Shown piece by piece: positions 3,750-37,071 of a stretch of 64,000 nt of DNA. The stretch lies in assembly GCF_054482525.1 (NCBI RefSeq), contig NZ_JBTHVG010000003.1. One strand, given 5' to 3'. Under the pieces are notes generated by a model, which did not search any database, was not told the origin of the DNA, and saw only the letters and a list, made by a program, of their open reading frames with translations. The translations under genes were made by a program, and so were the position numbers. Positions within the stretch are counted from its first letter, which is position 1. The number at the start of each line of letters is the position of its first letter. This DNA is from a plasmid.

Positions 3750-3761
3750 GGGGTTCATCCC
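3750..3761. repeat. Target-site duplication (GGGGTTCATCCC), right copy, flanking IS186
   Basis: Same 12-mer as at 2401-2412, immediately outside the right inverted repeat. Confidence 0.7.
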
Positions 3762-3777
3762 CCTCTCTGGATTTTTA

Positions 3778-4095: not shown

Positions 4096-4106
4096 TGGAG
4101 CTATGA

Positions 4107-6166: not shown

Positions 6167-6167
6167 T

Positions 6168-7974: not shown

Positions 7975-7981
7975 GGTTTAA

Positions 7982-8464
7982 ATGGATAGTTTAGAAAAAA
8001 AAGAATCGACTGAATCAGCTGGACCTGAAATCACTAAAAAAATGGTGCGAGAAAGGACAACAAAAAAAATTACCTTCGAAATTGATATTGAAAAAATATT
8101 GAAGTATTTATTTTTCTTCGCCTTTGCCGTTTTGGTCATTATTTATGGTTATAAAGGCTTTATGAATGTTTACGATTACTTCAATAAACAATCACAGCCT
8201 TCGTACAAGATTGCAGTGCTTGACATGCCTGAATTACGTAAGGAATTTTTCAAGCATCACGGAGGCCGTACTGCTGACAATGATAGAACTCAATTCGAAG
8301 AATATTTCAGAACATTAATGAAGATCTACCGTGACCGTGGCTATTTAATTATTGATGCAACGCTTGCCGTTACTGTACCGGATAGTGTTGAAATCGTCAC
8401 TTATATGGAACTTGAAGATAGCTCTGAAGCGGTACAATCAAGTTCTTATAATGCAAAGAAGTAG
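7982..8464 (+). CDS. Hypothetical membrane-anchored protein
   Basis: 160-aa ORF with one hydrophobic segment (YLFFFAFAVLVIIYGY). Confidence 0.3.
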   Translation: MDSLEKKESTESAGPEITKKMVRERTTKKITFEIDIEKILKYLFFFAFAVLVIIYGYKGFMNVYDYFNKQSQPSYKIAVLDMPELRKEFFKHHGGRTADNDRTQFEEYFRTLMKIYRDRGYLIIDATLAVTVPDSVEIVTYMELEDSSEAVQSSSYNAKK

Positions 8465-9335: not shown

Positions 9336-9344
9336 GGCTAGTTT

Positions 9345-10295: not shown

Positions 10296-10303
10296 GGTCA
10301 AAT

Positions 10304-12985: not shown

Positions 12986-13012
12986 AGTAAATATCTTCAA
13001 GCAAAAACAATT

Positions 13013-13046
13013 AAACCAGATGTCTCATAAGAATCTGGTTTTTTAT
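13013..13046 (+). terminator. Putative intrinsic terminator after traC
   Basis: aaaccagatgtctcataagaatctggtttttt: hairpin followed by a T-run. Confidence 0.5.
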
Positions 13047-13379
13047 TGTATGCCTTAAGTAAACAAATGAGGTTATGACTTAATGAGTTCATCACTGTGC
13101 TGCAAATTTTGGTTTTATAATTAATATGGCTTAAAAACAGTGACATAATTACAAATCGCATTTAGGTTGTGTACGCATTAAGTAAACAAAATTTATAACA
13201 TCAATACTGACTTTATAAGATGAAATTCACGTAAATTACATTTTTGTTTACCAAAGGTAATCAAAGGAGCGCGGCATTATTAGTGAAAACAGATCACTGG
13301 TGTCATATTGCATACAAAACTTAATATCCTTTAATCATTCTTCTAAAAGTTTAATATTAACGCTTTGGTTTATGAAAAT

Positions 13380-16300: not shown

Positions 16301-16700
16301 AGCTGGGGCACTGTCATCCGCTTGCAAATTTAACCCCCTTAATCGCCAAACTTGGGTTTTGTCCTGATGCTGGCCTTCCGTTCTGGGCGGGGTTGCTATC
16401 ACTTGCTCCCATCATGCGAAAAGTGCCTGCTGATACAGATTAACGTCATATTCCTTCATGCCGGTCTGCCGACACAAATGCACGGGCTTTTTTCGGTCCT
16501 TACAATACCGGGCAGGAGATTTAATCAGGGCGTGGTGTGACTGAGCAGCAGCTAGGACACTGTCAGCCGCTGGCAGATTTAACCCCCTTAATCGCCACAC
16601 TGGGGTTGCCTCCTGAAGTTGGGTTTCAGTTCTGGGCTAGGTTGCTAACTCTGCTCCCATAATTCGTAGTGGGCCTACTCAAGAGATTAACACCTCATAT
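13380..16700. repeat. Tandem direct-repeat array, about 14 units of about 221-259 bp (mostly 249 bp), with higher-order periodicity of about 1.7 kb
   Basis: Recurring block ...CAGATTTAACCCCCTTAATCGCCAAACTGG...GCTCCCATAATGCGAAATG...CTGCTGATACAGATTAACGTCATATTCCTG...GCCGGTCTGCCGACACCAGTGCACGG...GATTTAATCAGGGCGTGGTGTGACTGAGCAGCAGCTGGGGCACTGTCAG. Two adjacent units are identical (identical 69-aa track ORFs at 15985 and 16234, 249 bp apart). Segment 13400-13870 recurs at 15120-15580. Confidence 0.9.
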
Positions 16701-17070: not shown

Positions 17071-18324
17071 ATGAATTTACTTGAAAAGATCGCCCTCGTT
17101 GGTCAGCGCATGAAAAGCGAGCAGATTTCTCTTAAGGAATCTCTGATGGCTTCATCAAGAGTATCTGTTTCTGATGATAGTGTTGATGGTGTTGATAGAC
17201 TGATCTACAACCACTGTTTAAATAAAAAAAATCTCTCTGATTTTTTTGGGAAGTCACGAGTAACGTTCAATAAAATACTTTCGGACTTAGAAGAAAAAGA
17301 AGTTGTTGGTGCACCTATTTATCAAAACAAAAATCATCTTTACACCCGCTGGGATGTTCAAAAAATAATGGATGCCCTGGGTTATCCCAAGTACCGCGAT
17401 CATTACTTTAGCAGAGCTATTGTTACTCAGAATCATAAAGGCGGTACAGGGAAAAGCACTACATCTGTAGCTTTAGCAGTAGCAGCTGCTTTAGATCTAC
17501 AACTGAATGCACGTGTATTAATGATCGAATGGGACCCACAAGGTTCGATTGGAAGCAGCATGATTCAAAGTGTCTCAGAAGATGATGTCTTCCTTACAGC
17601 AATTGATGCAATCCTTGGAATTTATGAAGAAAATTCTGAGTATAAAAAATATTTAGATTCAGGATTCTCTGAAGAAGAAATCATCACTAATATGCCTTTT
17701 TCAACGCATCTGCCAAACTTGGACGTGATAACGGCATTTCCGACAGATGCTCGTTTTAAAGATAAATACTGGCAATGTTCTAGAGAAGAACGAACGTCTT
17801 TGTTACTACGTTTCAAGGAAGTTATCTTACCGGTACTGAAGCAGAACTATGATTTGATTATTATAGACACTCCACCTGAAGATTCACCTTTGATCTGGGC
17901 TGCTGACGAAGCGGCCGATGGGATTCTTGTCGCAGTGTCACCACGTGAATATGATTACGCCTCTACTACAGACTTCATGCTTACAATAAGTGAAAGGTTT
18001 AAACAATCACCAAGTAAGGGCGATAATTTAAAATGGTTCAAAGTTCTTGCTGTCAATGTTGATGACAAAAGTCCATATGAAAGAATAGTTTTGGATAAAT
18101 TAATCAGAACTGTTCAGGACCTTTTGATGTCCGCTAACATAAAAAATTCTGAAGCATTTAAGGCAGCTGCTTCCAAAGGGCGTACAGTGCTTGATATCAA
18201 AAAATCAGAGGAACTTTGTTCCGCAAAGCAACTTGATGTCGCAGAAGAATCTGTATTACAGGTATATCAACAATTTATAAATGAAATAAAAAGTTTTTCA
18301 GCTAAGCAAGGAGTTAACGCATGA
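17071..18324 (+). CDS. parA: Partition ATPase ParA (type Ia, with N-terminal HTH extension)
   Basis: 417 aa. Deviant Walker A (KGGTGKSTT). Size and N-terminal extension as in P1 ParA / F SopA. Stop overlaps the parB start. Confidence 0.85.
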   Translation: MNLLEKIALVGQRMKSEQISLKESLMASSRVSVSDDSVDGVDRLIYNHCLNKKNLSDFFGKSRVTFNKILSDLEEKEVVGAPIYQNKNHLYTRWDVQKIMDALGYPKYRDHYFSRAIVTQNHKGGTGKSTTSVALAVAAALDLQLNARVLMIEWDPQGSIGSSMIQSVSEDDVFLTAIDAILGIYEENSEYKKYLDSGFSEEEIITNMPFSTHLPNLDVITAFPTDARFKDKYWQCSREERTSLLLRFKEVILPVLKQNYDLIIIDTPPEDSPLIWAADEAADGILVAVSPREYDYASTTDFMLTISERFKQSPSKGDNLKWFKVLAVNVDDKSPYERIVLDKLIRTVQDLLMSANIKNSEAFKAAASKGRTVLDIKKSEELCSAKQLDVAEESVLQVYQQFINEIKSFSAKQGVNA

Positions 18325-23479: not shown

Positions 23480-24118
23480 ATGGCTAAAAACCCTATCTCA
23501 AATAAGGCAGATAACGACCGGATTCAGATCCGGTCTTTCTGGATATCCGAAAGAAAAGCACCCTATGTTTATAGTTTCTTGAAAAAAACAGAACTTTCTC
23601 ATAGGGGTGACCAACTGGATTTAATTAGGTCGGCTATTAGTACCGGGTTGGTATTGAATAATTTATTTCCTGACTTGGCAAATTTTATAAATGGTTTAAA
23701 CGAAAGATTAACACTTGCAGATCTTAATAGGTTTCTGAATGATGGAAATACTATAGATACTGAACCTAAGCCTCCTATTAATGTATTGCTAGAGAATGTC
23801 TTAGATCAAAAGTTTAAGGAGTATTTAACACCTCTACAATTAGATAATTCAAAGCAGGATTCTGTTTCTGTAAAAGAAACCTTCCTTGTACAAAAGGAAC
23901 ATGCCTGCTTTGGTGTGAAGATTGAAAATGAGGGAAGCGATACCTCTATACCATCTGAAAGCCCACTTTCTTCAGATGCATCCAAAATTTCAAAAGAAAA
24001 GTCCATTTCCGCTGTGGTGCCAGTGCTAGAAAAAGTATCGGATGAAAATCAAACCGCCTCCATAAGCATAAAATCTAAAGCTAAGGCAAACAAGCGACTG
24101 GCAACTTTGGCAAGATAG
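23480..24118 (+). CDS. parR: Putative ParR-like centromere-binding adaptor
   Basis: 212-aa ORF immediately downstream of parM with a K/S-rich tail. Assignment by position only. Confidence 0.4.
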   Translation: MAKNPISNKADNDRIQIRSFWISERKAPYVYSFLKKTELSHRGDQLDLIRSAISTGLVLNNLFPDLANFINGLNERLTLADLNRFLNDGNTIDTEPKPPINVLLENVLDQKFKEYLTPLQLDNSKQDSVSVKETFLVQKEHACFGVKIENEGSDTSIPSESPLSSDASKISKEKSISAVVPVLEKVSDENQTASISIKSKAKANKRLATLAR

Positions 24119-24166
24119 GTGAGAGACAGTACAATCGACTTCTGAGTTCCAACTTGTCTTACCAGG

Positions 24167-24196
24167 AAAGCCAGCATACTTGCTGGCCTTTTTTTT
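24167..24196 (+). terminator. Putative intrinsic terminator after parR
   Basis: gccagcatacttgctggc hairpin followed by a T8 run. Confidence 0.5.
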
Positions 24197-24521
24197 GTTA
24201 TAATAATTTCAGGCTTCACCTGGGTATGTAAAATTACTGTTAATGAAACGGTATTTTAGGTTAATTTGGGTGCTGTTACAGGAAGTGCGGATTTTTCCTA
24301 AATTTGTAAAAAACCTAAGAATTATCTTAATAAATCTGGTACTTAATTATTATTTTACTTATAAAGTCTCTGTGCTTTAATGGTTATGTAAGGATTTTTT
24401 GATACCCTTATACCCGATGGACCTAAGGTCACTGACAACGATGTTCATGTAGAATCTTCGTTTCTGTAATCCCTTTTGTTCTTGTCCCAAATGTTTGATT
24501 ATTATAATAAAGGCTGATCGA

Positions 24522-24974
24522 ATGCTATCTCGCAACTCACTAATACATGGTTTACGCCGAGACCAGTTAATCGGAGTTCTGACTATTTCAGAGTTTCCGG
24601 TAGTTATGGTAGAAAGCCACTTCATTCAGTCTGAGGTTATGGGAATAAAACCCGTAATTTTTAATATTGATGAGCTTCTTGTTTCTATATCCCCAATTTC
24701 CTCTCTTAAGTTCGATTGGGAGTGGGCCCCAGTTGATACAATACTCATTGAAGTTATCATTCCACCTGTAGAGTCAGACCTTGTAAGTGCAGAAAATGAC
24801 TTCCTCCGTGATTCTGGTATCGGCCATATCCAGTGCGAGCCTGGCGGAGCATCAATACGACGTACAGTTACCTTCGTTGGTGGAATAACCGCTGATAACT
24901 TACTGTATCAGTTGAGGCTTATGTGCGTAAGTGCGTTAAAACTTTTAGGAGAGGAACTGGGGGATGAAGTCTAA
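24522..24974 (+). CDS. Hypothetical protein
   Basis: About 150-aa ORF; start chosen at the internal ATG with an upstream AAGG. Confidence 0.3.
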   Translation: MLSRNSLIHGLRRDQLIGVLTISEFPVVMVESHFIQSEVMGIKPVIFNIDELLVSISPISSLKFDWEWAPVDTILIEVIIPPVESDLVSAENDFLRDSGIGHIQCEPGGASIRRTVTFVGGITADNLLYQLRLMCVSALKLLGEELGDEV

Positions 24975-25389
24975 GATTAGATATGTTTTATCTGGTTTTG
25001 TTGTGATATGTGCATTTGCTGGAGTTTATAAAATCCTAAACAATGTTCCGGTTAAACCTGACCTTTTGGACTTCACTGGAAACACATTTAAAAAGACATC
25101 ACTCTTCCTGCCATGTGATAAAAGCTCGCCTTCTTTAAACATTAAAATTGCTGATAACGAGAAAATCGTGATCAACGGCATCGCTTCAAAAGTAACTTTT
25201 GTTGAAAAGGCTGACCCCGTCAAAAGCCCTGGTTTTTGTGATGATCTTGATCTAAACAATTCTCGCCTTGTACATACGGCATCTTACAGCATGGTGATTT
25301 CTGAAACCAAAACAGGATATACACTCTCAAATTTCAAGCATCTTGCCGATGATGAATCATTAGGTGGTATGTGGTTTTATCAAAAGTGA
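24964..25389 (+). CDS. Hypothetical secreted protein
   Basis: 141 aa with an N-terminal hydrophobic signal-like segment. Confidence 0.3.
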   Translation: MKSKIRYVLSGFVVICAFAGVYKILNNVPVKPDLLDFTGNTFKKTSLFLPCDKSSPSLNIKIADNEKIVINGIASKVTFVEKADPVKSPGFCDDLDLNNSRLVHTASYSMVISETKTGYTLSNFKHLADDESLGGMWFYQK

Positions 25390-25397
25390 CTTTTTAT

Positions 25398-25952
25398 ATG
25401 GCAACTTCAGACTTCTCTCTTAAAAACCATAATGTAAAAGCTTTTGGTCAGGATGCAGCACTTGTCATTGAGATGAACAATGAAGATGTTAGCTCATCAA
25501 AACCTTCACCTTTTTCAAATGAGATTGATAATTATTATCTTACATTGCACGTCGCTCCGAGGAACGCCAAAAAAGATTATGACTGGGGCTCAAACCGTTC
25601 TGTACTTCTAAAATTGTCGACGAATGAAGTTATGCAGATGGCATCTGTATTTCTTAGAATCATGCATACTTTAAAAATTGATAAGAGGAAAACCTCACAT
25701 CATGGCCACGTCGTATACAAAAATATAAGCGTTACCCCAAACGAGAGGGGCGGTTTGTTGTTATCAGCAGGGATAGTTCCAGTCGATAAAGACGGCTTAA
25801 AACCCTTCATGCACATGGTCCCCGTCTCACAAATGGACTGCGTTAAAATTGGCCTCTACATACTTGGATATCTTGCTCAAAAAACGCCTTGGGTAAGCTC
25901 CGAGTCTATAATTACCGCGCTTCGCTTATCTGAAGCCAAGAATTCAAAATAG
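25398..25952 (+). CDS. Hypothetical protein
   Basis: About 184-aa ORF. Confidence 0.3.
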   Translation: MATSDFSLKNHNVKAFGQDAALVIEMNNEDVSSSKPSPFSNEIDNYYLTLHVAPRNAKKDYDWGSNRSVLLKLSTNEVMQMASVFLRIMHTLKIDKRKTSHHGHVVYKNISVTPNERGGLLLSAGIVPVDKDGLKPFMHMVPVSQMDCVKIGLYILGYLAQKTPWVSSESIITALRLSEAKNSK

Positions 25953-26071
25953 CGTATTAACATACGGAATACATGGAAAAATACAGGTTTTTTTAAATAT
26001 TATACGAACGGATATTTCTGTTTTTCATCGTAAAGTGAGTTTAATTTTGCTCAGAAAAACAGGTATTCGTC

Positions 26072-29000
26072 ATGAGAAAATCAGGTTTAGGTTTAGCCCT
26101 GTTGTTTTCTTTAATTGCTCCGATTAAAGCGGTCTATGCCGAAGCGATTATGATTTCAGGAAAGCTACAGGCTGATTTGCCAGCCGTATCCTTTGACCCG
26201 GGGCCGGGCGACTTTGTTGCATACGTTAATTCTAACACTATCACTGCCTCAGGTGCAGGCACAGCCTGTAATGTAACGGTTGATGATCGAGCGACTTCCT
26301 CTGTTGATAACCTCGTTTGTTTTTTTGAGTGGTTACCCAATACCTTGGGATTTACTTCTAACGGTTTCACTCTTTCAGGCGTTCCCAACACCACCGGTGA
26401 TTTAAAACTACCTTACAAGATTTCTTACTTCTCTGGTTCTGAACGGAAAAAAGTTGAAATAGTAAAAGGTGAATATTCAATCAAAAGTGTGGCACCGGTA
26501 AAACCTACTATCACCGGTCTTAAATCATCCCTGAACGGATTAGTCTATGACGGCTTTTCTTTCAAATCGTATTTAAAGGATGAAGCGATCAAAGATATCG
26601 CTGTTTCTGTTGAGCCCCGCAATTATATTCAATACATCTCAATAGGTTCAGGCTCCGCCTGTGAAGTTCCTATTGGCGGAACTTCCTGTACCATTGAAGT
26701 TGGAAGCATTAAGGCCAGTGATACAGATGAACTTTTGGGTTCACGTGATATCACAATTACAGCAAACTCTAAGAATAATTATTTCGCACCTCCTGAATCC
26801 AAAAAGCTTGTTGTTAACTGGGATTATCGGCCTCCTGTAGTAGACCATACACTTTGGAATTTTACCGATGAGGCTAAAACAATCAAAGTAGGTGGCCAGG
26901 ACATCTATACCGGAGCCAAAACCGTTGCTGTGGCCGTTAAGGTACCCCAGCAAGAAACAGAAGGTGAATGGTGGCTCCCAACAGCTATGTCGCTCACTAT
27001 GACTCCGGATGGCGTGTTTAAACCGACGACTAAAGTGACTTTAGATGATGGCACTGAGATTGATTTCAAACAGTCCTGGGCAACCCCTTTACGTAGAACT
27101 TTACAGCCGGTAAGTGGACCTCAAAAAGTCGGTGATGAGTACCTCTATATCTTCGACTTAACGGATCTTATAAACGGGTCCTACGCAGCGACTTTTACAG
27201 TAGAAAATACGAGCAAAAACTCTTCTACGTACACTGAGCCTGAAAGCAAACTGATGCTGTCTGATAACCCAACGCTTATGGTTCTCAAAGATGGGCAGGT
27301 ATTAACTAAACGAGCACCCGTATACTTCCTGAACGAGATTATCGTTGCAGCTTTCCAGGGGCAGGCTGGGGTTGCTGACATAAAATCAGTAACAATAGAC
27401 AACAAAGTAGTTTCGTTAACACCTACAAATTATAGAGGTATTTACTACCTGCCGGTTGGAGACGATTTAGCAGTTAATTCGGATCACGAGATTACTGTGG
27501 TGGCTGAAAACCTTTATGGAAAAAACGTTAATTTCAGTACCGTTTTCACTTATCAACCTACTGGATTCACTCTCAAGAATCTGGAAAAAAACGTAACTCT
27601 TTACTCGCGTGTACGTCAGTATACGGACCTGCTTAGTCAAACAGCTGGTGATAAATGCACTCTGTTTACCACAGAGGAAAATGCGAATGCTTACCTCGCC
27701 TGGTATGGGGAAAAATCAGATGTTACAGCATGCTACCCTCAGTGGAACAATGTCCCTGATGGGTTGGAGTTCTATTTTAAAGGACGTACCCCGGGTCTAA
27801 CTGGATTCTTTAATAAAACAGGTGAGAATCTGCTCGACTATCAAGTCTATATGATTAACGGGAAGGGCTCTAAAGCGGTATCCGCAAGGAATCGCCGTAC
27901 TCTGACCACACAATTACCATACAACCCGATCATCTCTTACAAAAAGAATAAAGTCATAGCTGGCATCAATCCGAACACTGCTCTGGCTTATACGACCGGG
28001 GGGGAGGCCGCTCGAATATTAGCGAAGGTGGTACCAGCTGACGTTACGATGATCGTCTCTCAAAACGGCTCTGAGGCTGTCAAAACGTCATTTAAAAATC
28101 GTTCCTCAAACAACGATGCAACGACCTTTGTACAAAGGGTTAAGGTTGCTGCTGCACCATTGTGGACAAAGAACGTCTTTGACATAGCTGTAGAATACTC
28201 AAAGGATCCAGAATTAAGAACTACAGACACACTCAACGTATATACGGTGCCTGATTTCAATATTCGAGCATCGATGGAAGTGGATGACAGAAAAACAGCC
28301 ACATCTCTTGAAGTGCCCTTAAAGGTAACAGTGGGGCGTTATAACAACTCCACACGTAAAAGTGCATTTGACCGTAAAACAATGGGAGAATGGGACGTCA
28401 CGATATACTCGCAAAAAAGTGTATACGGCAAAGATCCAGAAACAGGCCGTTATAAAACTACATACGAAAGAACTGCGCTGACTGAAGCATTGCCGGTCAA
28501 TGATGCGGGCATTGTCGAAACCAAGATTAAAATTGAAAATATGGATCTGGGTAATATGCGTCTGGTTGGTGTGGCTAAGGTCAGATCGCCATTCTCTGAT
28601 TTTGAAATGAAACGTGAGACCAGTGCTGTAGGCATTCGAATCTATAAAGGTGAGGAACTGGAGGGTAACCTGTCGAAAAGCCTTATTATCGGAAGGATCC
28701 CACTTAGTACTCTGGTAAGCTTCAAATCTGCCAGTACTGCTAACTCTGACGCACTTGCCCCCACCGAATGGCAGCAGTCCTCTGATAATGGTCAAACCTG
28801 GAATATGCTTTCCGACATGACCGGAAAGAGAAGTGTAAGTATCAAAAAGACAGAAGTAGGAAAGTGGCTTTATAGGGCAAAAATGACCAATAAATTCACA
28901 TCTAAGGTTTCCTACACAGATGCCTTAACGGTAGTTACCTACAAGCAGCCTAAGCTCAGTATAGATGTGACAGACATTCTTCAGGGCTCAGATGTACCTG

Positions 29001-30376
29001 TAACCCTGCTTGATAACGATGAGCCTATACCAGCAGGCACCGCTGAGGTTCTCTGGTCAGAGGATAAAGTCAACTGGGTGCAGGGAGATACAACTTACAC
29101 TGTGGCTTCAGCTGATACCCTACCGTCTACGATTTATGCCCGGATGCGTTACCTTGATTCCGATGAACTGGCAGAGGAGTCTTCATGGAAGGAAACGTCT
29201 GCTCGGTTGGCAGCCGCAAAACCCAAGCGCCTTTCTGTCTCGGTAACGGGGGTTTCTAAGGTAGAGGTTGGTCAAAAAGTTACTTTGGAAGGTAAGTTCA
29301 CGAACCCTAACAGTAAGTACCAGAATGGTAATAACGTAGTTGAAGAATGGAAAACACCGGATGGCCAGACATTTAAAGGCTCTACACTGTCTGTTACCCT
29401 TACTGAGCAAATGTTGGATAAACAGGGATATGCTGCTTTTGAATACAGTGCATGGTTAGCGGACAATAAGGAGAATACGGTTTCTACCCGTAGAGTTTCT
29501 GTCAAATCGTGGGTTTATAAATTCCCCGAAATGAAAATAAGCTCCAAACTTAAATACGACATGGCACCGACCACCCTACGCGTTGCGTTGAGCGGTATTA
29601 AGGATGGAGACTATCCTGGTGTTACTTATTCCCGAGAATGGATTTACGACAAAGAGAATCTGGTAATCACTAAAGATGAAGGTGACACCAAAGAATTTAC
29701 AATTGAAAATCCTGGCAAATATACATTGATGGTTGTTTTCAAAGATAACCGCAACAATGAACAGCGTATCGAAAATACCTTTGTTGTCGATGAACAAACG
29801 CCAATGAACGTTGAGATGACACCCAAGTTCTCTAACAAATATATGAGAGCTCCACTCGATGTAACCTTAAGGTCAAACATCAAGCTATCTCATTCGGCGG
29901 ACTCGATAGATACGGTCACATACAAGGTGAACGGTGAGGTAATACCCAGCGGCAAAAATTATTGGGCTCAACTGATTTCGGGTTTAAAAGAAAAGAAATA
30001 CGAGATCACAATTGATGTTGTTAGTAAACTTGGACAGAGAGGTTCAGCATCTGTTGAGTTTGATGTCGTTAAAAACGCAGTGCCTAATTGTACATTGAGC
30101 TACACGGAAACCAACCTAAGCTGGAGCTTTACCAATAAATGTGATGATACTGATGGAAAAATGGTTAGATATGAATGGTTCATCAACGGCGAATTAAGGA
30201 ACGTTTTCGGTAGTACGGCTACACTTTCTAAAAACCTTAACCGTGGTAAGCAGGACATAAAAGTAATTGCTTATGATGATAGTGGAGACTTTGCAACGCA
30301 GCACGTGACAGTTTTCGGACCGGCTGAAGAGGCAAGTAAGTCTGAAAACACTGTATCAATACCAAGCAGTGAGTAA
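26072..30376 (+). CDS. Large secreted beta-rich repeat protein (bacterial Ig-like; resembles the large RSP-type proteins of IncHI plasmids)
   Basis: 1434 aa. Signal peptide (MRKSGLGLALLFSLIAPIKAVYA). T/S/V/N-rich composition typical of Ig-like/adhesin repeats. Strong hairpin terminator downstream. Confidence 0.5.
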   Translation: MRKSGLGLALLFSLIAPIKAVYAEAIMISGKLQADLPAVSFDPGPGDFVAYVNSNTITASGAGTACNVTVDDRATSSVDNLVCFFEWLPNTLGFTSNGFTLSGVPNTTGDLKLPYKISYFSGSERKKVEIVKGEYSIKSVAPVKPTITGLKSSLNGLVYDGFSFKSYLKDEAIKDIAVSVEPRNYIQYISIGSGSACEVPIGGTSCTIEVGSIKASDTDELLGSRDITITANSKNNYFAPPESKKLVVNWDYRPPVVDHTLWNFTDEAKTIKVGGQDIYTGAKTVAVAVKVPQQETEGEWWLPTAMSLTMTPDGVFKPTTKVTLDDGTEIDFKQSWATPLRRTLQPVSGPQKVGDEYLYIFDLTDLINGSYAATFTVENTSKNSSTYTEPESKLMLSDNPTLMVLKDGQVLTKRAPVYFLNEIIVAAFQGQAGVADIKSVTIDNKVVSLTPTNYRGIYYLPVGDDLAVNSDHEITVVAENLYGKNVNFSTVFTYQPTGFTLKNLEKNVTLYSRVRQYTDLLSQTAGDKCTLFTTEENANAYLAWYGEKSDVTACYPQWNNVPDGLEFYFKGRTPGLTGFFNKTGENLLDYQVYMINGKGSKAVSARNRRTLTTQLPYNPIISYKKNKVIAGINPNTALAYTTGGEAARILAKVVPADVTMIVSQNGSEAVKTSFKNRSSNNDATTFVQRVKVAAAPLWTKNVFDIAVEYSKDPELRTTDTLNVYTVPDFNIRASMEVDDRKTATSLEVPLKVTVGRYNNSTRKSAFDRKTMGEWDVTIYSQKSVYGKDPETGRYKTTYERTALTEALPVNDAGIVETKIKIENMDLGNMRLVGVAKVRSPFSDFEMKRETSAVGIRIYKGEELEGNLSKSLIIGRIPLSTLVSFKSASTANSDALAPTEWQQSSDNGQTWNMLSDMTGKRSVSIKKTEVGKWLYRAKMTNKFTSKVSYTDALTVVTYKQPKLSIDVTDILQGSDVPVTLLDNDEPIPAGTAEVLWSEDKVNWVQGDTTYTVASADTLPSTIYARMRYLDSDELAEESSWKETSARLAAAKPKRLSVSVTGVSKVEVGQKVTLEGKFTNPNSKYQNGNNVVEEWKTPDGQTFKGSTLSVTLTEQMLDKQGYAAFEYSAWLADNKENTVSTRRVSVKSWVYKFPEMKISSKLKYDMAPTTLRVALSGIKDGDYPGVTYSREWIYDKENLVITKDEGDTKEFTIENPGKYTLMVVFKDNRNNEQRIENTFVVDEQTPMNVEMTPKFSNKYMRAPLDVTLRSNIKLSHSADSIDTVTYKVNGEVIPSGKNYWAQLISGLKEKKYEITIDVVSKLGQRGSASVEFDVVKNAVPNCTLSYTETNLSWSFTNKCDDTDGKMVRYEWFINGELRNVFGSTATLSKNLNRGKQDIKVIAYDDSGDFATQHVTVFGPAEEASKSENTVSIPSSE

Positions 30377-30392
30377 TAAATTTTTAAATATA

Positions 30393-30422
30393 AAGCCGGG
30401 ACATTTTGTCCCGGCTTTTTTA
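30393..30422 (+). terminator. Intrinsic terminator after the large secreted-protein gene
   Basis: aaagccgggacattttgtcccggctttttt: 9-bp GC-rich stem plus T-run. Confidence 0.7.
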
Positions 30423-30653
30423 TGCCCAACAATTGGACCTTTGAAAAATTAATACCGGAAAGTAACTTTGCTACAAAGGTATCTTTCATGGCCGCTAACA
30501 AGGCTGCGTCTACATGCTGAGAAATTAACATCCTTATAGGTTAATATTAGGTTAGTTTGCAGACTTCCGAGCGTTGAAAAACATGGATAATAGTTACTTG
30601 GATAGAGGTGTATCTACTTAGTAAAAATATTCTTCAGTGCTAGTGAGAAAAAT

Positions 30654-31166
30654 ATGAGCGACTACATACCTAAAAAGAGAGGGCTGCTTATACTGGATTG
30701 GTATGTCCCCATTAATATTTTATTGCTGATTCTCGTTATGTGTGTCTTTTTCACCCGTTATACATTTGGATACGGTTTATTGAATGGGTGCCTGCCTGCT
30801 GATTTTTATATGATTGATCATTCGGATAAAACTATTAAAACTGGTGAACTCATAGCTTTCAACATGCCGAAATCGGTTCGTTTTATCCCAGAAAATGAAC
30901 GAGTCATAAAAATTGTTGCCGGTGTGGGCGGTGACAAACTCAAAGTAACAATGGATGGGGTTTATAACGGGGACAAATTTTTTGAAGCTAATGCACGTCG
31001 TATTTCAAAGAAATACAGTATTCCGTCCATTTTGATTGAAAAAGAATTGATAATTCCTGAAGGCGAAGTTTTCCTAATTGGGCAAACCGATCACTCATGG
31101 GATTCCCGTTTTTGGGGAACAGTAAAGCTGAATTCAGTAATTGGGAAAACATATGCGATCTTTTAA
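30654..31166 (+). CDS. Signal peptidase I-like (S26 family) protein, TraF/TrhF-like pilin-maturation peptidase
   Basis: 170 aa, N-terminal transmembrane segment, S26 box-E-like motif (DSRFWG) and a KIVAGVGGD segment. Location in the tra cluster. Confidence 0.55.
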   Translation: MSDYIPKKRGLLILDWYVPINILLLILVMCVFFTRYTFGYGLLNGCLPADFYMIDHSDKTIKTGELIAFNMPKSVRFIPENERVIKIVAGVGGDKLKVTMDGVYNGDKFFEANARRISKKYSIPSILIEKELIIPEGEVFLIGQTDHSWDSRFWGTVKLNSVIGKTYAIF

Positions 31167-32664
31167 TGTAAATAAAAAATATTTACCAATACTTCCTGGA
31201 CTTGCGTTATGTGCAGTTTTAAGTAATACAAATGCAAGCACTGAGTATCAACATGATGCTGACCTAATCGCTCAGCAAGCAAAAGGGCTTGGCGCTCAGG
31301 CTAAAGGTGCACAGCAGCCAGATGGGGCTCTTAGCCTTGATGCTACGCTAAATTCACCAGATGTGCAGAAGTACATTGCGCAAGCTGAAGCACTCAAAAA
31401 AAACCAGGACCTGAGCAGGCAAACAAACCGTGGTTACGTGCCCGGTATGAATGCGGATAGTGTTCAAGCAGTTATAGACCATACCCAGGCTATAAGGGCC
31501 CAAAGTAATAACTCTGATGCTGTCAACGATATAATTAGAAGACGTGATGAAATTCAGGAAAACGCCAGCCTTAATGAAGCGGCTCTGAAAGCTGTGGAAA
31601 ATAAGCCGGAAGTCATGCGAGGACAATCTAAAAATATCGAAAAATTGTTTGGTTCCTCGGGCATCACAGCTGCTGACTTCGAAAGAAAAATGGATAGCAC
31701 ACGTGAAGAAGCACTATCAACTGAAAATGGTATAACGATCTTTGCTTCATTTAGCTTACCGGATTATGTACTGGAAGACCTTTTACGTACGGCCTCAGAG
31801 CATAAAGCTCGTGTAGTTTTCAATGGTCTAAAGAAAGGAACTACTCGGCTACCAGAGACACAGGCAGCAATAAACCAAATGATTGTCAAAGGAAAATTTG
31901 AATCTCCTTTGATTACAATTGATCCTGATAGCTTCAGTCAGTATCAAGTAACTCAAGTACCGACAATTATTTCTCGGGAGCAAGCTCGTTTTGCAAAAAT
32001 GGTAGGGTCCTTCAACGTTGAGTTTTTTCAGCGAGAACTTGCTAAAAAACCCGATCAGGACATTTTTCCTGTTGCTGGTACGATTTATCCCGTTGAAGAA
32101 AAGAGCATCATTAAAGAACTGGAAGAACGCGCACAAAAATATGACTGGGAAGGTGCAAAAAAAAGGGCCGTTGCGGACACCTGGAAAAATCAATGGATGG
32201 TCGATCTCCCTCCTGCCCAGGAACACAAAGAATTTTTAATTGACCCTACAGTGAGGGTCACTCAGGACGTAAAAGATAAGCAGGGCCGTGTAATAGCTTC
32301 CGCCGGTGAGTTGATTAATCCACTTTCGAGATTTCCTCAAAACCTGACGATGATAATTTTCGATCCACTCAATCCGGGCCAGCTGGTATGGGCTGAGCAG
32401 CAGTATCGACAACGTCTGGGTAGTGGAAAAGTAATGCCAATGTTTACCCGTATCCAAAAAGATAATGGATGGGATCACCTAAATGATTTACGTGAAAAAT
32501 TTAACGGTAAGGTGTTTAAAGTAAACGAACAGATTATCTCACGCTTTCAGATTAAAAATACACCTGCGCTTATAACTACTGACCAAGATAAATTCCGGAT
32601 CACCCTGTTTAGCGAGGCAGAAGTCCGTGGAATCGGAGCCCCAAATCTTTCAGAGGAAAAATAA
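31153..32664 (+). CDS. traW: T4SS periplasmic protein TraW/TrbC-like
   Basis: About 500 aa, signal peptide, positioned before traU. Larger than F TraW, consistent with a TraW-TrbC fusion. The track start at 31141 is TTG; the ATG at 31153 is preferred. Confidence 0.45.
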   Translation: MRSFNVNKKYLPILPGLALCAVLSNTNASTEYQHDADLIAQQAKGLGAQAKGAQQPDGALSLDATLNSPDVQKYIAQAEALKKNQDLSRQTNRGYVPGMNADSVQAVIDHTQAIRAQSNNSDAVNDIIRRRDEIQENASLNEAALKAVENKPEVMRGQSKNIEKLFGSSGITAADFERKMDSTREEALSTENGITIFASFSLPDYVLEDLLRTASEHKARVVFNGLKKGTTRLPETQAAINQMIVKGKFESPLITIDPDSFSQYQVTQVPTIISREQARFAKMVGSFNVEFFQRELAKKPDQDIFPVAGTIYPVEEKSIIKELEERAQKYDWEGAKKRAVADTWKNQWMVDLPPAQEHKEFLIDPTVRVTQDVKDKQGRVIASAGELINPLSRFPQNLTMIIFDPLNPGQLVWAEQQYRQRLGSGKVMPMFTRIQKDNGWDHLNDLREKFNGKVFKVNEQIISRFQIKNTPALITTDQDKFRITLFSEAEVRGIGAPNLSEEK

Positions 32665-32802: not shown

Positions 32803-33864
32803 ATGATGGTGAAAAAATTCAAAAAGTTACTTTTAGAGTTCATTGTAGCAGTTATGCTTTCGCTTTCTATACCTGGTATGGCTATGGCAGCAGATGCTGG
32901 AGTCCCTGGGGCTATGTGTCAGTCAGCTGGAGTGTGGCAGGGCTTGATTAAGAATATCTGTTGGAGCTGCATTTTTCCCATGAGGATAATGGGCATAGGG
33001 GCTGCTCCAGAAGGCGCTGCACCTTCACGTCCGGGTTGCTACTGCACAGATCAGAACGGCGTACCGGAAATAGGTTGGCAATTGAGCTTCTTTCAGCCGG
33101 TGAAGATTGTAGAAGTTGTAAAGAGCCCCTGGTGCAGCCCCTTTCTTGAAGGCACGATGCTTCAAAAATCGCAGTTTGATATTGGTAAAAGCAACACTAA
33201 TCAGCCAATGACAGCAACTGAAGCCGGATTTTACGATGTTCATCTTTGGGAGTTCCCAATCATGACAATGCTCAAATTACTGATTATTGGCGAGTGCACT
33301 GCTGAACCCTATATAGATGCCAGCCTGACCTATATAAGCGAAGTGGACCCTATGTGGGAAAGTGATCTGCTTACACTCGTCCTGAATCCCGAGGCAGTAG
33401 TTTTTGCAAACCCAATTGCCTCAATGGTGTGCGCTGCTGACTGTGTAGCAGTAACAGCAGGAAAGGATAATCTCGCTGCATACTTTTGTGCCGGATGCGA
33501 TGGCAACCTTTACCCATTAACCGGCCACATTTACGCAAATGATGACGCTGTAAGGACGAGTTCACTGATTACCCAGCGTCTTCTGACAAAACTACATCGC
33601 CAAGGCATGCTGATGCGAACGATGGGAGCAGACGCAATGTGTGAGAAAACGTGGGAATACTTTACACCACGTTCCCAGTATCGGCTTTCAATGCTTTTCC
33701 CTACTCCTGAGGCGAAGGGACCGGATTGCTGTCATCGTCTTGGTGATTCGGTACACGACTGGTCAACCCTTAAAGGTGGGCGCAAAAAAATAGGCAACGA
33801 TAATTATGTCTATATGTTGTGGCGTTACAATGACTGTTGTGTTCGCTACGTTCCAGGCGTTTGA
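32803..33864 (+). CDS. traU: T4SS protein TraU-like
   Basis: Signal peptide (MMVKKFKKLLLEFIVAVMLSLSIPGMAMA) and a Cys-rich periplasmic domain. Position between traW and traN. Confidence 0.6.
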   Translation: MMVKKFKKLLLEFIVAVMLSLSIPGMAMAADAGVPGAMCQSAGVWQGLIKNICWSCIFPMRIMGIGAAPEGAAPSRPGCYCTDQNGVPEIGWQLSFFQPVKIVEVVKSPWCSPFLEGTMLQKSQFDIGKSNTNQPMTATEAGFYDVHLWEFPIMTMLKLLIIGECTAEPYIDASLTYISEVDPMWESDLLTLVLNPEAVVFANPIASMVCAADCVAVTAGKDNLAAYFCAGCDGNLYPLTGHIYANDDAVRTSSLITQRLLTKLHRQGMLMRTMGADAMCEKTWEYFTPRSQYRLSMLFPTPEAKGPDCCHRLGDSVHDWSTLKGGRKKIGNDNYVYMLWRYNDCCVRYVPGV

Positions 33865-33882: not shown

Positions 33883-36800
33883 GTGAAACTTAGAAAAACA
33901 ATCACCTCAGCGATTATTGCATCAATGGTTGCCAATACTATGAGTTGGGCTTTTTATGTCACACTCATAAACATGGTAATGACACCACGTGTTTACGCTG
34001 CTGACGCTATATTTGACCAGCTCGAAAATAATTTTAACCTTGCAAATCCTAACGCAAATCGCAATGCAACCACCAGTGCTCAGGACATTGTGGAGAAATA
34101 CAAGAACGCGGATTCAGGCGAGAATGTCAGTGGGAAGATCACCGAGAAATACGTGGGTAAAGCCGAATCCGCTAATCTTAATCTCGGGAAGTATGGGGCA
34201 GGGAACTCTAATGAAAGTGTCATGAAAAATGCCGCATCCGATGGAAAGTCTATTGGTAGCGCCGTACAACTGCCGAGTATGTCTGGAGGGACAATCAATT
34301 CAAACTACACCAAGGAAGGGGCAAAGCTGCTCTCTCGTGATGCTAATGGCAACATTGGTATAAGCAGTAATCCCAATACTACTCCTGGAACCAAAACAAA
34401 TACGGGAGAGATTTTCAGCTCAGAGCAAAAGCACAGCGATATAAAGTTCAACGCCGCAGATCGTTATGGGGATGAGGATGGCTTTGTTAACGATATAAAG
34501 AATCGGAAAAGCCAGTTATTTGATGCTCAAAGTTATGATGGCGTTGCCTACCGCACCCTCGTAAATGCTAACAAGGACAACCCGGCATCGTCTGTAAAGC
34601 CTAACGATCCCATGTTTACTGCGGGGAGAAATGAGATAACCAATGCTGTTGCTGGTACTGGAAACTGGCTTCAGAACTGTAATGTTGAGACCTCCAAAAA
34701 AACAGTAACCACACACTATCCTGATTACAAAGAGTTCTACTGTAACTCGCCTAAGCAAGATAACTTCAGCAGCTGCACGATAACTCGTGACTTCTCTGTT
34801 CCTGTATACATTTCAGGCGGAAACGGAGACATGTCGATGTGCGGCGATAATTGTGTGCGTATATGGTTTGGTCGCCGTGATGACAACTACTGGAGTGACG
34901 GGGTATTTGATAACGAACTGACATTAAAATTCCATCCGGATGCAAAATTGGCCTCAGCAAAGATTGTTAACGCGGAGTGGGATGACCACATGCGGGTAAC
35001 ACTTGATGGCACGCAGATTTTTGCTCACATAGATGGTGCATATCGAGAAAGTGACTATCCGGCTCCAAAGGGATCTTGGGAGTTAAAAAAATCGTGGAAA
35101 CTCGACAAAGTATACGATGTAACTGAAAAGGTCAGAAAATCAGTTTATGAAGAACCTGATCGTGAAGTGACAATGGCATCCAGAGTCTGGGTTGGTGGGG
35201 GAGGTGAAGGGTACTTTGAGGTTGAGCTGACGTTTGAAAATATGAAGCTCGAAGATAAGCACGTCCAGGAACCAGCTGGTTGTTACGATGCTGTACAAAC
35301 ACCAAATACATTCTGCCGTTTCGATCGGTTTAAAGATATGGATGTTGGCACGAAGCGGCTTCCGGAAAGCGTGCTTTCTATGGCAAAGCCGCTGTATGAA
35401 GGCGATAAAGGCTTTCTTACCTGGAAGACTAACCTTGAAGGCTATTTTTGTGATCCATTGGCTAAAGACAAGATTTGCTCTTATGACGCCAGTGGGAAAA
35501 TTATGAAAGACGCTAATGGAAAGGACCTCTGTTACAACTACGAAGAAATTAAGAGTATGCCTGATGCATGTAGTTCTTATAAAAATGATGCAGCATGTGT
35601 ACTCGATAAACAAACATGTGCAGAGGGTTGGTTCGATGAGGGCACTAACAGCTGCTACATGTATGAACAGAAATACACCTGTGACAGAGGTAAGGATGTA
35701 GTTCGTGAGGTTGAATCTTCTACAAATGCCTGTGTTGGCATGATCCCATGTTCTGGAGGAACATGCGAAACTGGGCCAAAGGAAGAGAACAACGATTTTG
35801 GAAAAGTTGCGGCTTATTCAAACATGGTTCAGTACATGCAGGGCGAAGCCAAATGCGAAGACCCTAACGATGCCAATTCCTGTTCTGTCTTTGAAGGAAA
35901 ACCTGAATGGTGTGGTCGTTCAGTAGGCTTTGTAAATGGCCTGGCAAAGACGGACTGCTGCGAAGCACCGCAGGGAACCGCAGGAGCACTTGAAGGTATC
36001 ATGCTTGCCGGATCTATGATCAGAAACACTAACTGGACCAGAGTTAATGCTCAGCTAATAAAATGGACCGGCGGTGATACAGGTACATGGGCTTCTATGT
36101 CCAATGCGGTCGGTGAGTGGACTGCATCAGCTGGTAAAACAGTAGGGCAAATGTGGAACAATGTCACGAGCTCCTTAACGAGCGTATATGAAAACGTCGC
36201 TGGTAATCTAAGCAGGGCAGTTGGGTCTTCCGCAACTTCTGGAGGGGCAGGAGGTGCTGGCCAGTTGGCACAGGAAACAATGTCCAGCTTCGGTATAGGT
36301 CAGCTTAAGCAGATGGCAATGAAGAAAGCCTACGAATTGCTACCAGATACAGTTCGAGACTTTGTCTTTAAGAACGTTGCTACTACCGGAGGAGAGGTTG
36401 TCTTCTCGGCTGCGGTTCAAAACTTTATGCTTGCATTAAACGTGATCGGTTGGATTTATACAGCCTATCAGGTCACTAAAATGCTTTTAGAAATGTTGGT
36501 AGCATGCGACCAGAAAGAGATGGAAGCTTCTATTCATAAGAATCAAAAATCCTGTTTTACATTAGATACGGAACGATGCGTCAAATATCTGAATGTTGGT
36601 TTCACAAAGAAATGCGTTAAAAAAGCAACAGACATGTGCTGTTATAATTCCATGTTGTCACGCGTTATTATGCAACAAGCTTATCCGCAATTAGGAATAG
36701 ACCCTGTCGCCTCTAATTGCGTGGGGCTATCAATAAAGCAAATACAGCAACTGGATTTCGATAAAATTGATCTGACGGAGTGGATTAATGATGCAGTTCA

Positions 36801-37071
36801 GGTAGGAGAAGTTCCTGATCAATATTCAAAATTCTCCGAAGAATCAATTGTGGAAAACTTACCATTCCAGAATGAGAACTATCAACTTCCATCAGAACGT
36901 ACCAAGGAAGCAATGGGCGGTGAAGAAAATATGATAAAGGCCAGACAAGAAAATGCTCAGGCTATAAAAGAGGAAAATGTAGATTGTAGCTATTTACCTC
37001 GACCGGCCATATGTGAGGTAGGTTCAACTACGCTGGATCCGGTTACGGGCAAGCAGTTGCCGAAATATTGA
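33883..37071 (+). CDS. traN: Mating-pair stabilisation outer-membrane protein TraN-like
   Basis: 1062 aa with a Cys-rich central/C-terminal region. GTG start with an AAGGAG ribosome-binding site. Follows traU. Confidence 0.6.
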   Translation: MKLRKTITSAIIASMVANTMSWAFYVTLINMVMTPRVYAADAIFDQLENNFNLANPNANRNATTSAQDIVEKYKNADSGENVSGKITEKYVGKAESANLNLGKYGAGNSNESVMKNAASDGKSIGSAVQLPSMSGGTINSNYTKEGAKLLSRDANGNIGISSNPNTTPGTKTNTGEIFSSEQKHSDIKFNAADRYGDEDGFVNDIKNRKSQLFDAQSYDGVAYRTLVNANKDNPASSVKPNDPMFTAGRNEITNAVAGTGNWLQNCNVETSKKTVTTHYPDYKEFYCNSPKQDNFSSCTITRDFSVPVYISGGNGDMSMCGDNCVRIWFGRRDDNYWSDGVFDNELTLKFHPDAKLASAKIVNAEWDDHMRVTLDGTQIFAHIDGAYRESDYPAPKGSWELKKSWKLDKVYDVTEKVRKSVYEEPDREVTMASRVWVGGGGEGYFEVELTFENMKLEDKHVQEPAGCYDAVQTPNTFCRFDRFKDMDVGTKRLPESVLSMAKPLYEGDKGFLTWKTNLEGYFCDPLAKDKICSYDASGKIMKDANGKDLCYNYEEIKSMPDACSSYKNDAACVLDKQTCAEGWFDEGTNSCYMYEQKYTCDRGKDVVREVESSTNACVGMIPCSGGTCETGPKEENNDFGKVAAYSNMVQYMQGEAKCEDPNDANSCSVFEGKPEWCGRSVGFVNGLAKTDCCEAPQGTAGALEGIMLAGSMIRNTNWTRVNAQLIKWTGGDTGTWASMSNAVGEWTASAGKTVGQMWNNVTSSLTSVYENVAGNLSRAVGSSATSGGAGGAGQLAQETMSSFGIGQLKQMAMKKAYELLPDTVRDFVFKNVATTGGEVVFSAAVQNFMLALNVIGWIYTAYQVTKMLLEMLVACDQKEMEASIHKNQKSCFTLDTERCVKYLNVGFTKKCVKKATDMCCYNSMLSRVIMQQAYPQLGIDPVASNCVGLSIKQIQQLDFDKIDLTEWINDAVQVGEVPDQYSKFSEESIVENLPFQNENYQLPSERTKEAMGGEENMIKARQENAQAIKEENVDCSYLPRPAICEVGSTTLDPVTGKQLPKY

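Follow-up and report, generated by a model that had tools for sequence, protein, structure and literature searches.

The best described relative of the gene studied here is ORF R0009 of the IncHI1 plasmid R27, whose product, RSP ('R27-secreted protein'), is exported, binds both flagella and the H-pilus and is required for conjugation (PMC6764697, PMC8730810). In an R27 Δrsp strain transfer is undetectable (below 3e-7) and can be complemented in trans, while motility is regained (PMC6764697). Export needs trhC (PMC6764697) as well as trhH and trhA (PMC8730810). By qRT-PCR, rsp was found to be more than 40-fold higher at 25 °C than at 37 °C (PMC6764697), at odds with R27 microarrays, where R0009 was reported not to be temperature-responsive (PMC7366339). 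A second secreted Ig-like protein of R27, RSP2 (R0055), which also has a signal-peptide-like start, is an interaction partner of RSP and attaches to the flagella and the pilus as well (PMC8730810). All functional work on RSP concerns R27 or pHCM1 (IncHI1) and none of it the IncHI2 allele, for which our literature search found no experiment apart from the correlative case of an IS insertion in pMG101 (see below). As carriers of resistance genes, among them mcr-1, IncHI2 plasmids are of major importance (PMC6764697).

The window, i.e. the whole 64-kb stretch of plasmid DNA analysed, contains a 4.3-kb gene that we identify with high confidence as rsp, the IncHI2 orthologue of R0009 and a backbone gene of the Tra2 AN operon (Table). 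At the DNA level, the gene is 100% identical to database entries that carry the annotation 'rsp: IncHI-type conjugal transfer protein RSP', and its product is identical to WP_001232107.1 and to sequences named RSP by NCBI. This name does not come from an HMM of the NCBIfam library that we scanned, since the scan returned nothing at E <= 0.01. The same DNA occurs in 1126 plasmid records, with at least 99% identity in 1089 of them, and rsp is therefore no chance ORF. These records are mostly typed IncHI2A, with MOBH / MPF_F; 2805 database sequences share a 90%-identity cluster with the allele of the window, which is the dominant, common IncHI2 allele. The protein (158.5 kDa, pI 5.8) contains 9.8% T, 8.9% V and 8.4% S, with 8 Cys and 4 His. 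It aligns with R27 RSP (WP_181406561.1; 1432 vs 1434 aa) over 1428 aa at 83.5-84% identity and 93% positives with no gaps, and the two have the leader, four Cys pairs and flanking genes in common. They are most diverged at aa ~100-250 and ~1050-1225 (66-78% identity in 50-aa windows), and the overall divergence of rsp is similar to that of core T4SS genes (identity to R27: trhF 78%, trhW 81%, trhN 88% and trhU 96%). The initial annotation had thus rightly suspected a homologue of the large surface proteins of IncHI plasmids, and the work on exported Ig-like conjugation proteins to which it referred does exist (PMC6764697, PMC8730810, PMC11268884). The gene encodes an already described large secreted Ig-like protein, and there is nothing new in the identification itself.

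Table. Features of the rsp region (positions in the window; aa, residues of the 1434-aa RSP).
Feature	Position	Strand	Basis
htdA	24522..24974	+	Annotation of identical record, shifted +2096; 85% identity to R27 counterpart
htdF-position ORF	24964..25389	+	Shifted annotation; 51% identity to R27 counterpart
htdK-position ORF	25398..25952	+	Shifted annotation; 53% identity to R27 counterpart
Promoter-like site TGGAAA-18-TATTAT	25974..26003	+	Consensus scan only, 9/12 matches; 119-bp gap upstream of rsp
rsp CDS, IncHI2 allele (1434 aa + stop)	26072..30376	+	ORF list (intact; ATG at 26072, stop ends at 30376), translation, DNA match, R27 identity
Sec-type signal-peptide-like leader, codons 1-23 (MRKSGLGLALLFSLIAPIKAVYA)	26072..26140	+	Hydropathy, motif inspection
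First beta domain, aa 38-148	26183..26515	+	Cys66/Cys83, C-x-F-E-W...P..G motif, hhalign
Big_3_3-matching region, aa 356-497	27137..27562	+	Pfam, below gathering score
Module common to C-terminal half of 1828-aa IncC protein, aa 487-1405	27530..30286	+	tblastn, blastp
Second Cys-pair domain copy, aa 498-622	27563..27937	+	Cys529/Cys554 invariant, hhalign
About eight tandem ~93-aa Ig-like repeats, aa ~703-1421	28178..30334	+	hhalign; approximate boundaries
trhF/trhP	30654..31166	+	Annotation; NCBIfam signal peptidase/TraF match
trhW	31153..32664	+	Annotation; NCBIfam TrbC plus TraW matches
trhU	32809..33864	+	Annotation
trhN	33883..37071	+	Annotation

The genomic context is that of R27. In the Tra2 "AN" operon, rsp lies between htdA/htdF/htdK and trhF-trhW-trhU-trhN, an order common to the window, the IncHI2A plasmid pSTM6-275 and R27, for which the composition htdA-htdF-htdK-rsp-trhP/F-trhW-trhU-trhN has been given (PMC7366339). 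Bases 1-52096 of the window are collinear with pSTM6-275 at 99.8-99.96%, the exceptions being one IS and a difference in repeat number. These neighbours, together with the intact ORF and its leader, confirm the initial proposal of a 1434-aa signal-peptide-like protein encoded in the transfer region. An internal promoter upstream of R0009 was demonstrated in R27 by a lacZ fusion (PMC7366339); in our scan of 24000-31200, promoter- and terminator-like sites were not above shuffled-sequence expectation, and no convincing terminator followed rsp. The Tra2 region also encodes the disulfide isomerase HtdT. In addition, thioredoxin-fold genes occur near distant RSP homologues. RSP-like genes stand directly upstream of Peptidase_S26-TrbC_Ftype-TraU-TraN in all five informative distant loci. 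Thus, relatives at 22-28% identity keep the order RSP-TrhF-TrhW-TraU-TraN, of which we found no mention in the literature.

The models obtained here predict mature RSP (~156 kDa) to be an all-beta protein with roughly 13-14 Ig-like beta-sandwich domains behind the leader, a count estimated by strand grouping and not from coordinates. AlphaFold2 models of aa 24-505 (pLDDT 90.8) and aa 487-1434 (pLDDT 87.4) are almost entirely beta by DSSP; the C-terminal 18 aa are variable and modelled with low confidence. With Foldseek, they match tandem Ig-like, cadherin, FN3 and MG-domain arrays only (E 3e-9 to 1e-18), including RTX-adhesin repeats, S-layer proteins, protocadherins, DSCAM, titin/MyBP-C, NUP210 and complement MG arrays; the top match of the N-terminal model is 6xi1, an RTX adhesin tetra-repeat. 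Internal repetition was undetected by a plain BLASTP self-comparison and is visible only profile-profile. In the C-terminal half, the hhalign self-alignment gives offsets of about 93, 185, 300 and 380 residues (probabilities 67-98%, best E 1.9e-14), and this region is modelled as consecutive beta-sandwiches that match titin, DSCAM and complement MG arrays. The first beta domain is paralogous to the second Cys-pair domain (N- vs C-part profiles: 97.4%, E 1.3e-11, 110 columns). Sequence searches were far less telling: a search of the PDB gave nothing significant (E >= 0.26), and scans of Pfam and NCBIfam gave no family match above threshold. The closest was Big_3_3 at aa 356-497 (E 5.6e-4, 20 bits vs a cut-off of 27), in a region modelled as a beta-sandwich at pLDDT above 90 and equivalent to aa 331-470 of R27 RSP, for which a Big_3 domain has been reported (PMC6764697). 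A precomputed Pfam table also assigns PF13750 to the cluster representative P0003 (84% identical) and to homologues further away. The Ig-like reading of the initial annotation is thus supported by all-beta models that match Ig-like arrays and by the ~93-aa tandem profile repeats, whereas Pfam brings it a sub-threshold Big_3_3 match only. Neither Pfam nor NCBIfam recognised an anchor or secretion module in RSP (RTX/T1SS C-terminus, beta-barrel or sortase motif). An autotransporter or T1SS adhesin was considered and dropped, no barrel or RTX module being found by Pfam and hydropathy.

RSP starts with a basic stretch followed by a hydrophobic core that peaks at 2.6 on the Kyte-Doolittle scale and by a small-x-small site, with predicted cleavage after MRKSGLGLALLFSLIAPIKAVYA and before EAIMISGK; hydropathy over the whole protein revealed no further hydrophobic segment. 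The leader was judged by eye, from hydropathy and with a crude rule. A23 is invariant and E24 nearly so across 17 homologues, and the same crude rule finds a similar leader in 47 of the 50 full-length members of the family. We found no mention in the literature that Sec-type leaders are kept across the family. Four Cys pairs are conserved in RSP and are invariant in the alignment of the 17 homologues. We infer that export may proceed in two steps: RSP would cross the inner membrane by Sec and form its disulfides in the periplasm, then exit alongside the growing pilus or attached to it, instead of being picked up in the cytoplasm like a classical T4SS substrate. By analogy with R27, the protein would be made mainly under mating-permissive conditions, pass through the periplasm and reach the surface or medium only with a working pilus/T4SS, namely the TrhC ATPase, TrhH and the TrhA pilin. 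Outside the cell it may decorate the H-pilus and the flagellar filament, which would lower motility and promote or stabilise donor-recipient contact, so that transfer in liquid at about 25 °C would depend on RSP.

Three other readings must be weighed. RSP could be a structural component of the H-type T4SS or of the pilus base, located in the periplasm or outer membrane, its extracellular form resulting from shedding or co-sedimentation. It co-immunoprecipitates with TrhH, a protein of the outer-membrane complex (PMC8730810), its gene is in tight synteny with pilus-assembly genes and the 'flagellar' fractions were ultracentrifugation pellets that would hold pili too (PMC6764697). We nevertheless consider this rather unlikely, because immunogold labelling puts RSP on extracellular filaments (PMC8730810) because surface-displayed nanobodies (PMC11268884) and anti-Flag opsonisation reach RSP from outside and because RSP immunisation protected mice (PMC11268884).

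A classical one-step, effector-type T4SS substrate taken from the cytoplasm, whose hydrophobic N-terminus would be something other than a cleaved Sec signal, is improbable. Such a route would account for the loss of R27 RSP export in ΔtrhC and its return with trhC in trans, for the type IV secretion predicted by SSPred (PMC6764697) and for the intracellular build-up of RSP in ΔtrhA and ΔtrhH strains (PMC8730810). However, the need for the pilin and for outer-membrane TrhH fits pilus-coupled exit equally well, and a canonical leader followed by a conserved mature N-terminus, as well as the four invariant Cys pairs, argue for passage through the periplasm, where R27 RSP was indeed detected, leading its authors to propose a periplasmic intermediate (PMC6764697). 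Finally, that RSP is a general adhesin for biofilms, host cells or surfaces, acting on conjugation indirectly via aggregation or reduced motility, is also improbable: Phyre2 likens the R27 C-terminus to SiiE and SraP and RSP binds flagella and lowers motility (PMC6764697), and RTX adhesin extender repeats and S-layer proteins are among the structures matched by Foldseek, but (i) rsp keeps its fixed position directly upstream of trhF-trhW-traU-traN in 22-28%-identical relatives from unrelated samples, (ii) export requires the pilus machinery and RSP decorates the pilus (PMC8730810), (iii) cells without flagella require RSP for transfer too (PMC6764697) and (iv) the protein has no known adhesin anchor, whether beta-barrel, RTX/T1SS C-terminus or other hydrophobic segment. 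A secreted, pilus-associated conjugation factor exported in two steps is thus the reading that we retain.

A relative outside IncHI plasmids is the 'conjugative transfer protein 123' or Ig-like protein of IncC (IncA/C) plasmids, to which aa 487-1405 of RSP are 24% identical over about 930 aa (E 4e-64 to 9e-71). Like RSP, it is encoded within a plasmid transfer region (MOBH / MPF_F). The large Big protein of pKAZ4 (ALG87502.1, 1828 aa) is homologous to RSP over its C-terminal ~900 aa; we take ALG87338.1 of pKAZ3, shown to promote conjugation at 25 °C (PMC8730810), to be its orthologue. The pKAZ4 protein differs from RSP in being 400 aa longer and in being encoded between traA and dsbC/traC, with a thiol:disulfide gene beside it, not upstream of trhF. 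Over its N-terminal ~800 aa, the similarity is to R27 RSP2 and the RSP2 paralogue (26-33% identity, E 2e-58 to 2e-116) and not to the N-terminus of RSP; the 1828-aa chain thus combines an RSP2-like and an RSP-like half, of which we found no mention in the literature. RSP2 itself is no close homologue of RSP (a single 39-aa local match, E 1e-5) and differs from it in size (about 800 aa), in domains (DUF4165 and Big_1/Big_3) and in being encoded outside Tra2. A tblastn search with R27 RSP2 and its paralogues found no homologue in the window besides that 39-aa match inside rsp. A diverged homologue of rsp2 (38-39% identical) does exist in IncHI2 plasmids, outside the window; it is overlooked in the literature that we found. 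Since IncHI2 plasmids are without a close rsp2, partner usage may differ from that of R27. It is tempting to speculate that R27 RSP and RSP2, interacting proteins whose export is interdependent, are a split form of the single IncC chain, and that IncHI2 also uses a diverged RSP2 orthologue, a tentative proposal to which we give somewhat less than even weight. If true, the use of an RSP2 orthologue by IncHI2 would be contrary to the literature, a head-to-tail RSP2-RSP assembly would be predicted on the pilus and the set of vaccine and nanobody targets would be wider.

For the IncHI2 allele itself, the correlative case is that of pMG101: pMG101-A, with ISEc27 in rsp, shows no detectable transfer, whereas pMG101-B, with intact rsp, transfers at 25 °C; its authors note that the defect may reflect polarity on trhFWUN (PMC8417528). 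IS-disrupted rsp occurs in about 17 of the 1126 records (about 1.5%) among the matches listed; some of these plasmids are still typed 'conjugative' by MOB-suite, a typing that reflects gene content, not transfer. Because the records are few and the sites and IS types differ, we treat these disruptions as sporadic and dropped the idea of a widespread selected phenomenon.

RSP is exposed on the donor cell and tied to the plasmid, not to a bacterial species, and for these reasons the IncHI1 protein has already been tested both for vaccination, as the antigen, and as a target of nanobodies (PMC11268884). The suggestion of the initial annotation that such a surface factor could be targeted to block plasmid spread has thus already been carried out: a displayed nanobody cuts R27 transconjugants about 100- to 1000-fold (PMC11268884). 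Given 84% identity overall and 81% in the last 280 aa, the nanobody antigen region, cross-reactivity of the existing reagents with the IncHI2 allele is plausible, judging from the alignment.

Leader conservation, deep synteny, the composite make-up of the IncC protein and the rsp2 homologue of IncHI2 sharpen the model of this family and leave its classification unchanged. Pertussis toxin, secreted via Ptl, sets a precedent: it is exported by Sec, folds and acquires its disulfide bonds in the periplasm and leaves the cell in a T4SS-dependent step. It is unrelated to RSP in sequence and fold, and Ptl is a dedicated effector system without pilus decoration or a role in conjugation. In architecture, RSP recalls the 'beads on a string' beta-sandwiches of SiiE, of RTX adhesin extender regions and of SraP, from which it differs in lacking sequence homology, a T1SS signal and a cell-wall or outer-membrane anchor. 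Whereas the repeats of giant adhesins are near-identical, the domains of RSP have diverged, and its export is tied to the conjugative T4SS and its pilus.

The gene proves to be rsp, already described in detail, here as the commonest IncHI2 allele, and as a discovery it is therefore not new and of little interest. In a megablast search of 72,556 plasmids its DNA was present in 1126 records (≥99% identity in 1089), with Escherichia, Salmonella and Enterobacter predominating as hosts. Matching records name the gene "rsp: IncHI-type conjugal transfer protein RSP", those inspected were typed IncHI2A, MOBH and MPF_F, and pSTM6-275 is collinear with window 1-52096 at 99.8-99.96%, except for one IS and a difference in repeat number. 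The expected homology to a large IncHI surface protein was borne out: the product is 84% identical to RSP of the IncHI1 plasmid R27 (93% positives, 0 gaps, 1428 aa) and the surrounding gene order is the same. At 83.5% identity RSP is about as far from its R27 counterpart as the core transfer genes around it are from theirs (trhF 78%, trhW 81%, trhN 88%, trhU 96%), and so behaves like a conserved gene of the transfer backbone. The two small ORFs upstream of rsp (the htdK-position ORF and its neighbour) share only ~52% identity with their R27 counterparts, far below the other genes of the operon. The htdK-position ORF has a weak Pfam match, just under the cut-off, to the Whirly ssDNA-binding fold (E 1.3e-4, 22.3 bits, cut-off 23).

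The initial annotation placed a large, beta-rich secreted protein in the transfer region, and this observation is confirmed. The ORF is intact, flanked 5' by htdA and two small ORFs and 3' by trhF (signal-peptidase-like), trhW (a TrbC/TraW fusion), trhU and trhN (annotation and domain scan). By inspection and hydropathy, residues 1-23 (MRKSGLGLALLFSLIAPIKAVYA) resemble a Sec signal peptide, with a basic start, a hydrophobic stretch and a small-x-small site predicted to be cleaved at A23|E24, and this leader is the sole strongly hydrophobic segment of the protein. Thr, Val and Ser are abundant, there are 8 Cys, and the calculated mass is 158.5 kDa (156.1 kDa without the leader).

Sequence searches of RSP returned only a sub-threshold Pfam match (Big_3_3, aa 356-497), with no match in the NCBIfam scan or in a PDB sequence search. 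Two homologue sets were collected, one of 18 proteins (26-100% identity) and one of 275 clusters (50% identity) at E < 1e-3, 143 of them at E < 1e-30; alignments of 58-59 sequences drawn from both were given to AlphaFold2. The resulting models (aa 24-505, mean pLDDT 90.8; aa 487-1434, mean pLDDT 87.4) are nearly all beta-strand, and Foldseek against the PDB returned only beta-sandwich domain arrays: RTX-adhesin tetra-repeats (6xi1), S-layer proteins, protocadherins and ICAM-5 for the N part; titin/MyBP-C, NUP210, DSCAM and complement/alpha-2-macroglobulin MG domains for the C part. TM-scores were low, which is usual when chains of several domains are flexible. Within RSP, profile-profile comparison detected ~93-aa tandem repeats over aa ~703-1421 (probability ≤98%, E 1.9e-14) and a paralogous pair at aa 38-148 and 498-622 (probability 97.4%, E 1.3e-11); both members carry a conserved Cys pair together with the motif C-x-(F/V)-E-W...P-G. 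These models and repeats bear out the proposed tandem Ig-like domains, of which there would be ~13-14, an estimate from strand grouping rather than coordinates.

The interpretation of the gene as an exported conjugation factor is likewise supported, and what the initial annotation said of large IncHI Ig-like proteins holds for R27 RSP (PMC6764697; PMC8730810). R27 RSP (ORF R0009) is a 155-kDa secretome protein for which predictions gave 61% beta structure, a Big_3 domain at aa 331-470 and a C-terminus resembling SiiE, and an allele occurred in all 34 IncHI1 and 102 IncHI2 plasmids then available; its deletion made transfer undetectable (<3e-7), a defect rescued in trans (PMC6764697). R27 RSP lowers motility, co-purifies with flagella and is present in the periplasm, and its export is lost in a trhC deletion (PMC6764697). 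RSP2 (R0055) and TrhH co-precipitate with it, TrhH and the pilin TrhA are also required for its export, and both RSP and RSP2 label the conjugative pilus (PMC8730810). Blocking plasmid spread through this protein, which the initial annotation envisaged, has already been tried for IncHI1: a nanobody against the last 280 aa of RSP, displayed on E. coli, lowered R27 transconjugants ~100- to 1000-fold, and RSP immunisation protected mice (PMC11268884). Across that antigen region the IncHI2 protein shares 81% identity with R27 RSP. The AN operon htdA-htdF-htdK-R0009-trhP-trhW-trhU-trhN includes R0009 and has internal promoters upstream of R0009 and of trhP (PMC7366339). Reports on the thermoregulation of R0009 conflict: by lacZ fusion and qRT-PCR, expression at 25 °C exceeded that at 37 °C more than 40-fold (PMC6764697), whereas by microarray R0009 was classified as unresponsive to temperature (PMC7366339).

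How RSP leaves the cell may be approached from conservation. A comparable leader followed by a conserved mature N-terminus is found in 47/50 full-length relatives, and Cys pairs 66/83, 197/206, 529/554 and 1340/1357 are invariant in a 17-sequence alignment. Tra2 encodes the disulfide isomerase HtdT, a thiol:disulfide gene adjoins the IncC homologue, and Thioredoxin_2 genes lie close to distant homologues. Together with the periplasmic pool in R27, these features favour a two-step route in which RSP would undergo Sec export and oxidative folding, then exit in a pilus/T4SS-dependent manner; that RSP is instead a cytoplasmic T4SS substrate is less likely. The two-step route is a refinement, since the R27 authors had already suggested a periplasmic intermediate (PMC6764697); no mention of the signal peptide was found in PMC6764697, PMC8730810 or PMC11268884.

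For the IncHI2 allele, the only functional evidence found in the literature is correlative: pMG101-A, with ISEc27 in rsp, showed no detectable transfer (polar effects being possible), and pMG101-B, with intact rsp, transferred at 25 °C (PMC8417528). At least ~17 of the 1126 records carry an IS-interrupted rsp, with different elements and positions (an IS3-family element ~1.8 kb in, IS2, ISKpn26 ~0.2 kb in, two IS256 copies), which points to repeated sporadic inactivation. Such insertions agree with the published ISEc27 (pMG101-A) and IS26 (an IncHI1 cointegrate) cases.

Coordinates of rsp, related genes and other features discussed
Feature	Sequence	Coordinates	Strand	Details
rsp	window	26072..30376	+	1434 aa; single ORF, ATG to stop
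htdK-position ORF	window	25371-25952
Small ORF, pilin position before traL	window	1998-2378
Insertion vs pSTM6-275	window	2413-3749		1337 bp
DDE_Tnp_1 transposase ORF in insertion	window	2583-3701	-	371 aa
traL-like gene	window	3748-4095
trhC	window	10304-12985
249-bp tandem repeat	window	13853-16691		11.6 copies, 73% matches, G+C ~0.49
parA	window	17071-18324
R27 rsp	NC_002305.1	11659-15957
"Conjugative transfer protein 123"	pKAZ4 (L004, IncC)	5226-10712		1828 aa
Ig-like protein genes	pS15 (L006, IncHI2A)	12010-14400; 4037-6457		~800 aa each; outside window
IS-interrupted rsp	L007 (CP101353.1), L008 (NZ_PP626394.1), L009 (NZ_CP067308.1), CP082667.1

Two further features of the window deserve mention. 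The insertion, with ~12 bp of flank duplicated, lies between the pilin-position ORF and the traL-like gene; by its size and duplication we take it to resemble IS186, and it might exert a polar effect on the trhL...trhC pilus operon, which is needed for RSP export in R27. The 249-bp repeat, of which pSTM6-275 has ~750 bp less, fills part of the non-coding gap between trhC and parA and possibly serves in partition or incompatibility.

In the wider RSP family, ~55 clusters of proteins ~1400 aa long can be aligned with RSP over the full length at 22-28% identity, and its C-module forms the C-terminus of many longer proteins (1700-3770 aa). All five informative contigs examined that carry distant relatives (L010, L011, L012, L014, L015; from metagenomes and assemblies) encode, in this order, an RSP-like protein, Peptidase_S26 (TrhF), TrbC_Ftype (TrhW), a ~45-51-aa ORF, TraU and TraN; a sixth ended at the RSP-like gene. 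In several of these loci a Thioredoxin_2 gene lies close by; one locus adjoins tyrosine recombinases, suggesting an integrative element.

IncHI2 plasmids are said to be without rsp2 (PMC8730810). By tblastn, RSP2 matched many ~220-395-kb plasmids of IncHI2 host range at ~38% identity, and the one inspected, pS15, was typed IncHI2A. Its two Ig-like proteins have signal-peptide-like starts. The 796-aa gene (product WP_000694551.1) has RSP2 as best R27 match (39%, E 1e-174) and lies on the same side of RelE/ParE toxin and PAPS-reductase genes as R27 rsp2, and the 806-aa paralogue matches an IS30-truncated R27 paralogue; no rsp2-like gene lies within the 64-kb window. In the pKAZ4 protein, aa 5-797 match RSP2 (26%, E 2e-58) and a second R27 paralogue (33%, E 2e-116), and aa 926-1819 match RSP 487-1405 (24%, E 9e-71). 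Judged from these alignments, it is composite, with an RSP2-like N-terminal ~800 aa and an RSP-like C-terminal ~900 aa. Because RSP and RSP2 are interaction partners in R27, the arrangement resembles a fused/split pair and suggests that in IncHI plasmids they correspond to the two halves of one IncC protein.
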